From NCBI RefSeq assembly GCF_003334815.1, contig NZ_QOWO01000100.1: a stretch of DNA of 1,334 nt; one strand, given 5' to 3'. Within the stretch, counting starts at the first letter, position 1. Every line of letters begins with the position of its first letter. The position numbers were made by a program, and so were the translations under genes. This stretch comes from Escherichia coli. GTDB taxonomy: Bacteria; Pseudomonadota; Gammaproteobacteria; Enterobacterales; Enterobacteriaceae. A model generated the notes under the pieces. The model made no database searches and was not told the DNA's origin. It was given only the letters and a program-made list of their open reading frames with translations. Below, one piece after another: positions 1 through 1,334 of this stretch.

Positions 1-804
1 AACCAGATGGACCCGGTGTACACGCCGGCGCGAAAAATCCACCTGTACCACTGCGACCATCGCGGCCTGCCGCTGGCGCTTGTCAGCACGGAAGGGGCAA
101 CAGAATGGTGCGCAGAATACGATGAATGGGGCAACCTGCTGAATGAAGAGAACCCGCATCAGCTGCAGCAGCTTATCCGCCTGCCGGGGCAGCAGTATGA
201 TGAGGAGTCCGGCCTGTATTACAACCGCCACCGCTATTATGACCCGCTGCAGGGGCGATATATCACTCAGGATCCGATTGGGCTGAAAGGGGGATGGAAT
301 TTTTATCAGTATCCGTTGAATCCGATCTCAAATATAGATCCATTAGGATTAGAAACACTAAAATGCATTAAGCCACTGCATTCAATGGGCGGAACTGGTG
401 AAAGAAGCGGTCCAGATATATGGGGGAATCCGTTCTATCATCAATATCTTTGTGTCCCAGATGGTAAAGGGGACTATACTTGTGGTGGCCAAGACCAACG
501 GGGAGAATCAAAAGGAGATGGTCTATGGGGGCCAGGTAAAGCAAGTAATGATACAAAAGAAGCTGCTGGCCGTTGTGACCTCGTTGAAACCGATAATAGT
601 TGTGTGGAGAACTGTTTAAAAGGGAAGTTTAAAGAGGTAAGGCCGCGTTATTCTGTATTGCCTGATATATTCACACCTATAAATTTAGGGCTATTTAAAA
701 ACTGCCAAGACTGGTCTAATGATTCTTTAGAAACATGTAAGATGAAGTGCTCCGGAAATAACATTGGACGTTTTATTAGATTTGTATTCACCGGAGTGAT
801 GTAA
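1..804 (+). CDS. rhsC: Rhs family protein, C-terminal portion (5'-partial; gene continues upstream of the window): conserved core tail plus variable C-terminal putative toxin domain
   Basis: The frame is open from nt 1 (AAC CAG precede the ATG at 7), so the ATG at 7 is an internal Met, not the start. The translation carries a terminal YD-type repeat ([22 protein letters not shown]) and the Rhs core-terminating motif [13 protein letters not shown] (DPLGL at nt 337-351). Downstream of it composition switches to AT-rich and the protein becomes a Cys/Gly-rich 150-aa tail ([14 protein letters not shown]...FVFTGVM). Stop codon TAA at 802-804. The symbol is recalled from E. coli K-12 RhsC element organisation and needs BLAST confirmation; the family call is firm. 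Confidence 0.88.
337..351 (+). other. DPxGL motif (DPLGL) marking the end of the Rhs conserved core and the boundary to the variable C-terminal domain; expected autoproteolytic release site
   Basis: Codons gat cca tta gga tta at 337-351, preceded by PLNPISNI. In characterised Rhs/YD-repeat proteins this PxxxxDPxGL element ends the core and an aspartyl-protease-like activity cleaves here. The GC-rich to AT-rich switch falls within about 20 nt of this motif. Confidence 0.8.
352..801 (+). other. Variable C-terminal domain of the Rhs protein (putative toxin domain, about 150 aa, 9 cysteines, function not identifiable from sequence)
   Basis: Everything after DPLGL to the stop. AT-rich, unlike the core. 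Residues [96 protein letters not shown]... I see no HNH, HExxH, deaminase HxE/CxxC or ART signature. Confidence 0.7.
793..796 (+). promoter_or_regulatory. Shine-Dalgarno-like GGAG for the downstream membrane-protein gene, lying inside the 3' end of the rhs CDS
   Basis: GGAG at 793-796, 7 nt upstream of the ATG at 804-806. Together with the stop/start overlap TAATG (802-806) this suggests translational coupling. Confidence 0.55.
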
Positions 805-1130
805 TGAAATATATTATTTTTTTATTCAGAGCTATATGGCTGGCTTTATCGCTTTTAATACTATTCTTTTCCATGCATAGACTTTCACTATTAGACTCCA
901 CTCGTGATGTGAGCGAGTTAATTAGTCTCATGTCTTATGGAATGATGGTAATATGTTTTCCAACAGGCATAGTATTCTTTATTGCTCTAATATTTATAGG
1001 GACTGTATCAGACATTATTGGCGTAAGGATTGATAGTAAGTATATTATGGCGATAATAATATGGCTTTATTTTCTGTCAGGAGGGTATATTCAATGGTTT
1101 GTATTAAGTAAGCGCATTATAAACAAATAA
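804..1130 (+). CDS. ybfB: Small polytopic inner-membrane protein (108 aa, about 3 predicted TM helices); putative cognate immunity protein for the upstream Rhs C-terminal domain
   Basis: Complete ORF from ATG 804 to TAA 1128-1130. The start overlaps the rhs stop by 1 nt (TAATG) and has a GGAG SD. It shares the AT-rich composition of the rhs C-terminal domain, so they look like one module. Three hydrophobic stretches: YIIFLFRAIWLALSLLILFFS, ISLMSYGMMVICFPTGIVFFIALIFIGTV and YIMAIIIWLYFLSGGYIQWFVL. The position immediately 3' of an Rhs toxin domain is the canonical immunity-gene slot. The symbol is recalled (K-12 ybfB is, to my memory, a 108-aa membrane protein downstream of rhsC) and unverified; the immunity role is inference. 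Confidence 0.72.
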   Translation: MKYIIFLFRAIWLALSLLILFFSMHRLSLLDSTRDVSELISLMSYGMMVICFPTGIVFFIALIFIGTVSDIIGVRIDSKYIMAIIIWLYFLSGGYIQWFVLSKRIINK

Positions 1131-1160
1131 ATTAAGTTAATTGCTCTTATTATTATATGT

Positions 1161-1334
1161 AACCTGGGCATTGATATCCCGTATGCCACAGACCCGGCAG
1201 GTAACCGCCTGCCCGACCCGGAGCTGCACCCGGACAGCACCCTCAGCATGTGGCCGGATAACCGTATCGCCCGTGACGCGCACTATCTTTACCGGTATGA
1301 CCGTCACGGCAGGCTGACAGAGAAAACCGACCTC
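1161..1334 (+). CDS. ybfO: Orphan Rhs core fragment (5'-truncated rhs coding sequence with no start codon of its own, continuing past the window end); probable start of a second, displaced rhs C-terminal/immunity module
   Basis: GC-rich sequence resumes abruptly near 1161 after the AT-rich module. Frame 3 is open from the stop at 1128-1130 to the window end and translates to ...[58 protein letters not shown], which contains a canonical YD-repeat (YxYDxxGRL). The first in-frame ATG is at 1248 with no convincing RBS. The symbol is recalled from the K-12 RhsC element and unverified. Confidence 0.75.

Follow-up and report, generated by a model that had tools for sequence, protein, structure and literature searches.

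Rhs loci in which a full-length gene is followed by spare, detached toxin tips have been described before. One of the closest described systems is that of rhs-main (STM0291) and rhs-CT-orphan (STM0292) in Salmonella Typhimurium LT2, which consists of a full-length rhs gene, its immunity gene and a start-less fragment that carries another tip/immunity pair (PMC3967940). Koskiniemi et al. 2014 (PMC3967940) demonstrated experimentally that the Salmonella main rhs gene recombines with this orphan over 522 bp at 95% identity, which generates a chimeric full-length gene. According to Jackson et al. 2009 (PMC2935791), arrays of this kind arise as an incoming tip displaces the tip that is attached to the core; their arrays feature a dissociated tip, a partial core nearly identical to the core of the adjacent rhs gene, a tip/immunity region of low GC content, and a tip whose state, attached or displaced, varies among strains. 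Orphan rhs-CT/rhsI modules were defined by Poole et al. 2011 (PMC3150448). The orphan cdiA-CT/cdiI modules (PMC3150448) likewise consist of start-less tip fragments with conserved pre-tip sequence, followed by a translatable immunity gene, but belong to the CdiA family, with a VENN motif rather than the PxxxxDPxGL of the Rhs core, and use a different delivery route. Moreover, orphans can also be expressed internally, at a low level (Starsta 2020, PMC7043789). Orphan Rhs modules matter because they keep further interbacterial toxins and immunity genes in reserve, and their recombination onto the main gene changes the toxin that is deployed.

The stretch of DNA analysed here, which comprises 1,334 nt and is referred to as the window, originates from the rhsC element of Escherichia coli, and at least 80% of it is present in 2,536 of 5,426 complete E. 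coli genomes. It represents the same locus, with the same gene order from ybfA to ybgA, as the K-12 rhsC element (rhsC b0700, ybfB b0702, the pseudogene ybfO b0703 and ybfC b0704), i.e. kdp-ybfA-rhsC-ybfB-orphan-ybfC-ISAs1 remnants-ybgA. MG1655 (K-12) is 99.2% identical to the window over 1,332 nt (10 mismatches) and KCTC 2571 is 99.9% identical; the only complete E. coli genome with 100% identity is that of G4/9, in which the window is present twice. For the layout of the window, which is summarized in table 1 together with the duplications described below, the RefSeq annotation and an independently made list of open reading frames are concordant.

As such, the locus is already known: it is annotated as ybfO, represents a textbook orphan Rhs module and offers no new biology. 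It shares all of the above-mentioned features with the arrays of Jackson et al. 2009, from which it does not differ in any essential way, and its fused state, described below, would correspond to the chimeric full-length gene of LT2. In comparison to LT2, however, the homologous stretch is longer and more similar (1,036 nt at 98% versus 522 bp at 95% identity), and duplications affect the 1.9-kb unit itself rather than the whole locus as in Salmonella. Also, recombination was observed in the laboratory in LT2, whereas here it is deduced from natural alleles, and the direction of events as well as recombination rates are what we infer. The modest addition provided by the present analysis is population-level evidence for three inter-convertible states of one locus, with mapped crossover intervals: the YbfO tip on a full-length rhs gene, the RhsC tip on the main gene and YbfO orphaned downstream, and the RhsC unit duplicated.

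Table 1. Features of the window (positions in the 1,334-nt stretch) and of the tandem duplications (positions in the respective locus or in the 1,036-nt homology, as indicated).
Feature	Position	Strand	Basis or remark
rhsC core 3' end, with Pfam RHS domain	1..351	+	RefSeq rhsC; PF03527 E = 7.6e-15
Core-end motif of rhsC (13 residues)	313-351	+	within rhsC core 3' end
RhsC C-terminal tip, presumed toxin domain, 150 aa, Cys-rich, GC 41%, stop 802-804	352..804	+	orphan-core homology ends at ~339
ybfB, 108 aa, hydrophobic, presumed cognate immunity gene	804..1130	+	ORF; RefSeq 'protein YbfB', WP_000873944.1
AT-rich spacer, 30 nt, ybfB stop to first core-homologous codon	1131..1160	+	no terminator-like site
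5'-truncated rhs core fragment, left edge of the orphan (K-12 ybfO), RhsC aa 894-951	1161..1334	+	homology; PGAP partial CDS start
In-frame ATG, old K-12 ybfO (b0703) start	1248..1250	+	no Shine-Dalgarno sequence upstream
YD-repeat peptide, 18 residues	1281..1334	+	translation; inside RHS_core HMM match
Duplication, G4/9	L001 9001-12205
Duplication, L006 and L007	L006 and L007 3966-9213
B-766 middle copy	crossover 327-501 of 1,036-nt homology		6 orphan sites, then 14 main-core sites
GPEC389 middle copy	crossover 27-173 of 1,036-nt homology		3 orphan sites, then 13 main-core sites
G4/9 middle copy	crossover before 195 of 1,036-nt homology		all sites main-core

The original prediction had core-like sequence restarting about 30 nt after the stop codon of the immunity gene, and this is precisely what is found. 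Protein homology to RhsC begins with N-L-G-I-D at position 1161, exactly 30 nt past the ybfB stop (TAA at 1128-1130), where the alignment sets in at RhsC residue 894, and a RefSeq/PGAP partial coding sequence ('missing N-terminus') begins at this same base. The first bases of the fragment (1161-1175) are diverged, with 9 of 15 positions matching the rhsC core; the remainder (1176-1334) is identical at 159 of 159 positions to nt 2695-2853 of the rhsC core, i.e. aa 899-951 (blastn E = 5e-82). The translation of the fragment (58 aa) matches profile positions 908-964 of 1261 in the NCBIfam family RHS_core (NF041261) with E = 4e-33 and 114 bits, and GC content is 27% in 1131-1175 versus 63% in the fragment. 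Homology between fragment and core is thus well past chance. Two minus-strand open reading frames over the fragment (1137-1307 and 1091-1249) were discarded as chance frames in GC-rich core sequence, given that it is the plus-strand frame which shows the family match (E = 4e-33). The YD repeat (families PF05593 and TIGR01643), which had been called perfect, indeed agrees exactly, by eye, with the YxYDxxGRL(I/T) half of the consensus for Rhs repeats (YxYDxxGRLT). Taken alone, it scores weakly against Pfam RHS_repeat (PF05593; i-E-value 0.12, orphan residues 43-57) because this match is only 15 residues long, and its significance would derive from the surrounding RHS_core match.

The fragment had also been said to be without a start codon. 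This holds for positions 1131-1247, which contain no in-frame ATG, GTG or TTG, but an in-frame ATG is found at 1248, i.e. at the position where K-12 ybfO (b0703), now flagged as a pseudogene, was once annotated to start. This Met codon is also an internal codon of the full-length rhsC core, and the sequence ahead of it, GACAGCACCCTCAGC, contains no Shine-Dalgarno sequence. The ybfB frame remains open past its stop throughout 1131-1334 (a translation of 68 residues), and at 1128-1161 ybfB and the orphan fragment are thus seen to lie in one frame, with one TAA and then 10 sense codons between them. Sharing a frame has a one-in-three chance and is probably coincidence; read-through of the ybfB stop into the orphan was therefore set aside, as nothing speaks in its favour. 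An Rfam scan of the whole window at E <= 1 gave zero matches and thus indicates no structured RNA in the spacer or the fragment. A promoter scan of the window yielded five promoter-like sites, compared with 3.4 +/- 2.0 in shuffled sequence and with none of the five located in 1131-1334, and a terminator scan found no terminator-like site after ybfB.

Upstream of the fragment, the end of the rhsC core and the RhsC tip are covered by an open reading frame at 7-804 in the rhsC frame. Bases 1-339 are 97.6% identical to the 3' end of the orphan core, with nucleotide homology ending at about 339, and the tip of 150 aa that follows includes about 10 Cys residues. The ATG of ybfB overlaps the rhsC stop codon (TAATG, 802-806) and is preceded by GGAG 7 nt upstream; the gene has a GC content of 31%, and its product is very hydrophobic. 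By the position of its gene, YbfB would be the immunity protein that belongs to the RhsC tip, and a membrane-embedded YbfB hints at an RhsC toxin with the envelope or membrane as its target. The RhsC tip, YbfB, the YbfO tip and YbfC matched no family in Pfam or NCBIfam, and the literature searched contained neither functional papers on ybfB, ybfC or ybfO nor tests of toxicity or protection for the two tips. In both pairs of tip and small gene, the reading frames overlap, i.e. in rhsC/ybfB by TAATG (window 802-806) and in ybfO/ybfC by ATGA (L003 9374-9377). Together with Shine-Dalgarno-like sequences upstream in both pairs, these overlaps suggest translational coupling.

In canonical genomes, which include those of K-12, KCTC 2571, W, B and others, the fragment at the end of the window runs on as ybfO. 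Aligning it with the full-length core had been proposed as a check on the original prediction; in KCTC 2571 this alignment extends over 1,036 nt at 98.2% identity. Further downstream, a DPxGL motif, a tip and an immunity gene were anticipated, and the matching genomes do contain a distinct tip and ybfC, but the motif is a different one: the orphan core ends in PLNPVQYIDSMGL, that is with DSMGL in place of DPxGL, such that the Asp and the Gly-Leu are kept and Pro is replaced by Ser. IDSMGL (L003 8868-8906) is also present in intact full-length alleles such as L005 and is therefore probably compatible with C-terminal self-cleavage. Downstream of window positions 1131-1334, the orphan also matches TIGR03696 with 83.8 bits (cut-off 32.5) and PF03527 with E = 1.8e-14. 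As a whole it reaches 762 bits against NF041261, covering positions 908-1261 of 1261; the curated cut-off of 2000 bits for this equivalog family is missed by the window fragment (114 bits) as well as by the whole orphan, which is a C-terminal piece of the RHS_core family that is shorter than member length.

The YbfO tip at the end of this orphan comprises about 150 aa and is distinct from and unrelated to the RhsC tip, with nucleotide homology stopping at the boundary motif. ybfC, which encodes 189 aa, overlaps the orphan stop codon (ATGA), has a GAGAGG Shine-Dalgarno sequence 9 nt ahead of its start codon ATG and is intact in eight out of eight loci. The frame of the orphan is open across all 506 codons in five loci, and its tip shows 0-2 codon differences among eight loci, which is too little diversity for a test of purifying selection. 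In several lineages, IS3, IS1 or IS5 interrupts the orphan core or the tip region; in L008 (7161-9942), for instance, IS3 is found after 621 nt of orphan core.

If the main core recombined with the orphan core, the main rhs gene was predicted to become joined to the orphan tip. The corresponding deletion product was built in silico by joining 600 nt of core from ahead of the homology to the orphan core, followed by the YbfO tip and ybfC, and was searched against complete genomes, many of which match it as a single unbroken piece that is annotated as 'RHS element core protein' next to 'ybfC' and is without ybfB. In L004 (3906-8672) and L005 (3907-8672), this fused arrangement resides at the same locus between kdp-ybfA and ybgA. 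L005 (strain C 236-04A) has an intact Rhs protein of 1,399 aa, whose C-terminal 159 residues, with IDSMGL among them, match the orphan tip at 159 of 159 positions; given this match, the orphan YbfO tip is genuine. In L004, the fused rhs gene carries a frameshift, with a tet(B) region nearby. A query consisting of RhsC tip-ybfB-spacer-orphan core-YbfO tip is covered to at least 80% in 2,391 genomes, and the YbfO tip plus ybfC are found in 3,518 genomes, which puts the fused state at roughly 1,100 of the 5,426 complete genomes, an estimate by difference from a search that sometimes joins overlapping pieces. Evenly spaced sample rows of the 2,391-genome search fit the proportion of the fused state. 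The predicted fusion of the main gene and the orphan tip thus exists in nature, but the fused alleles may either be deletion products or represent the ancestral state before tip displacement, and for the latter reason do not prove ongoing switching.

Footprints of the recombination between core and orphan that the original prediction had proposed are found in tandem duplications. An exact tandem duplication of 1,871 bp, which includes the distal core, the RhsC tip, ybfB and the spacer, is present in at least three unrelated genomes (G4/9, B-766 and GPEC389), which come from differing hosts and countries; three is a lower bound, with the search sometimes joining overlapping pieces. The resulting order is rhsC-ybfB-[partial rhsC, same tip]-ybfB-[ybfO]-ybfC. 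At sites that tell the terminal orphan copy from the main core, the middle core copy carries orphan alleles on the 5' side and main-core alleles on the 3' side, with crossover intervals as listed in table 1, and within each of the three genomes the two 835-nt unique parts are identical. This is the pattern that unequal crossing-over would leave if the orphan on one copy of the chromosome recombined with the main core on a second copy. The copies in B-766 are not identical to each other, which makes an assembly artefact unlikely, and there have been at least two, and probably three, independent duplication events. In this way, the SNP-mapped hybrid core copies document recombination between core and orphan in natural isolates. 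In L006 (5837-6872), positions 405-431 of the middle core copy contain a cluster of four sites at which it differs from the main core as well as from the orphan copy at the end of the array, with alleles that are known from other strains; this patch looks like a short gene conversion, possibly from another rhs locus.

These duplications also specify what is exchanged and what the window may contain. The deleted module had been placed at roughly 331-1160; the unit that is actually exchanged comprises 1,871 bp, i.e. 1,036 nt of core followed by 835 nt that hold the tip, ybfB and the spacer, whereas 331-1160 corresponds to the net difference. The prediction that the fragment carries an alternative pair of C-terminal domain and immunity gene is borne out by the YbfO tip and ybfC in canonical genomes, but in G4/9 the fragment after the first ybfB ends in the canonical IDPLGL and is followed by the RhsC tip and ybfB once more. 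Likewise, the description of the window as one swappable cassette and the left edge of the next applies to canonical genomes, but in arrays of the G4/9 type the 'next' cassette may be the same one again. By its letters, the window matches the second G4/9 copy just as well, in which case its left-hand 'full-length core' would itself be an orphan. That the window indeed stems from a G4/9-type array, in which the RhsC-tip/ybfB unit was duplicated by unequal crossing-over between main core and orphan, is a tentative reading to which we give slightly less than an even chance. If so, such arrays would represent naturally captured reciprocal products of toxin-tip switching, and E. coli rhs orphan arrays would expand and contract in this way in the wild, i.e. 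beyond laboratory-evolved Salmonella.

Overall, the fragment very probably is the start of the orphan Rhs module ybfO, i.e. a promoter-less and start-less spare tip that can be swapped onto rhsC by homologous recombination; the observation from which the original prediction set out is thus confirmed, and its interpretation as a whole is supported, with those of its predictions that could be checked borne out, apart from the corrections of detail given above, in genomes that contain the window. The module consists of the last ~354 codons of the core without a translation start of their own, a core-end motif, an alternative tip and the separately translatable ybfC. Following established Rhs biology, the tips would be toxins that are carried by full-length Rhs and set free after the core-end motif, with ybfB and ybfC as the putative immunity genes. 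Without the N-terminal and shell-forming part of Rhs, the orphan itself would not be a deliverable toxin and would presumably stay silent until its tip is recombined onto a full-length gene. ybfC, with its own Shine-Dalgarno sequence and start codon, could plausibly shield the cell from the many E. coli that have the YbfO tip on full-length Rhs.

As to mechanism, the approximately 1 kb of orphan core with 98% identity would be a substrate for RecA-type homologous recombination with the adjacent upstream rhsC. Unequal crossing-over would remove the 1,871-bp unit of distal core, RhsC tip, ybfB and spacer and generate a full-length gene joined to the YbfO tip, with the tandem duplication of this unit as the reciprocal outcome. 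Both the fused and the duplicated outcome occur in natural genomes, with hybrid SNP patterns. The array itself most likely originated when the RhsC-tip/ybfB unit was recombined into the core and displaced the attached YbfO tip, as in the model of Jackson et al. 2009. Loss of ybfB by simple deletion would leave the recombinant sensitive to its siblings, as argued for Salmonella (PMC3967940), and simple deletion may thus be counter-selected; the cost of losing the main immunity gene favours routes via duplication (PMC3967940).

Could the orphan instead be a decaying pseudogene, i.e. what is left, with no present role, of an earlier rhs gene or an earlier insertion event? Such a history would agree with the pseudo or partial flag in RefSeq, which includes K-12 ybfO, with a fragment that has neither a start codon nor a Shine-Dalgarno sequence and with the IS3, IS1 or IS5 insertions in the orphan of some strains, but it is improbable for a sequence in which all 506 codons are open in five independent loci, whose tip differs little or not at all from the one attached to intact genes, whose arrangement is kept in about 2,400 genomes and which demonstrably joins in recombination. 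We regard it as equally improbable that the orphan is an independently and internally expressed, toxin-antitoxin-like module, which would use an internal promoter and a non-canonical start near the tip and act inside the producer, as has been reported for the Salmonella orphan, with the core sequence in the window being irrelevant. Internal promoters and a CTG start are known for the Salmonella main and orphan rhs-CT, a promoter termed P2 has been reported upstream of E. coli Rhs toxins (PMC7043789), and transcriptional read-through is plausible with ybfB having no terminator. The window itself, however, gives this reading no support, with its promoter-like sites at the level of shuffled sequence and none of them in 1131-1334. 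The region that matters here, directly ahead of the orphan core-end motif, is situated beyond the end of the window, and internal expression would be compatible with the recombination model rather than an alternative to it.

Somewhat less remote, although still rather unlikely as the sole explanation, is retention for immunity only, in which ybfC guards against the roughly 1,100 E. coli lineages with the YbfO tip on full-length Rhs, with the orphan core and tip as mere passengers. It is in line with this view that ybfC brings its own Shine-Dalgarno sequence and start ATG and is undamaged in each of eight loci, that many strains do have the YbfO tip on full-length Rhs and that orphan immunity genes are expressed and protective in CDI systems (PMC3150448). 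Yet, the toxin fragment is still intact even though this view has no need for one, and the putative protection by YbfC would complement, rather than exclude, the explanation of the orphan as a spare tip swappable by recombination.

In addition, candidate pieces of this kind are found beyond ybfC in some strains. L003 (10187-11569) and L004 (8916-10298) contain genes for an 'NTF2 fold immunity protein' and for a DUF6258 protein, along with an RHS fragment of 87 nt, which are likely to be remnants of further displaced cassettes. K-12 instead has ISAs1 (H-repeat) remnants downstream of ybfC.
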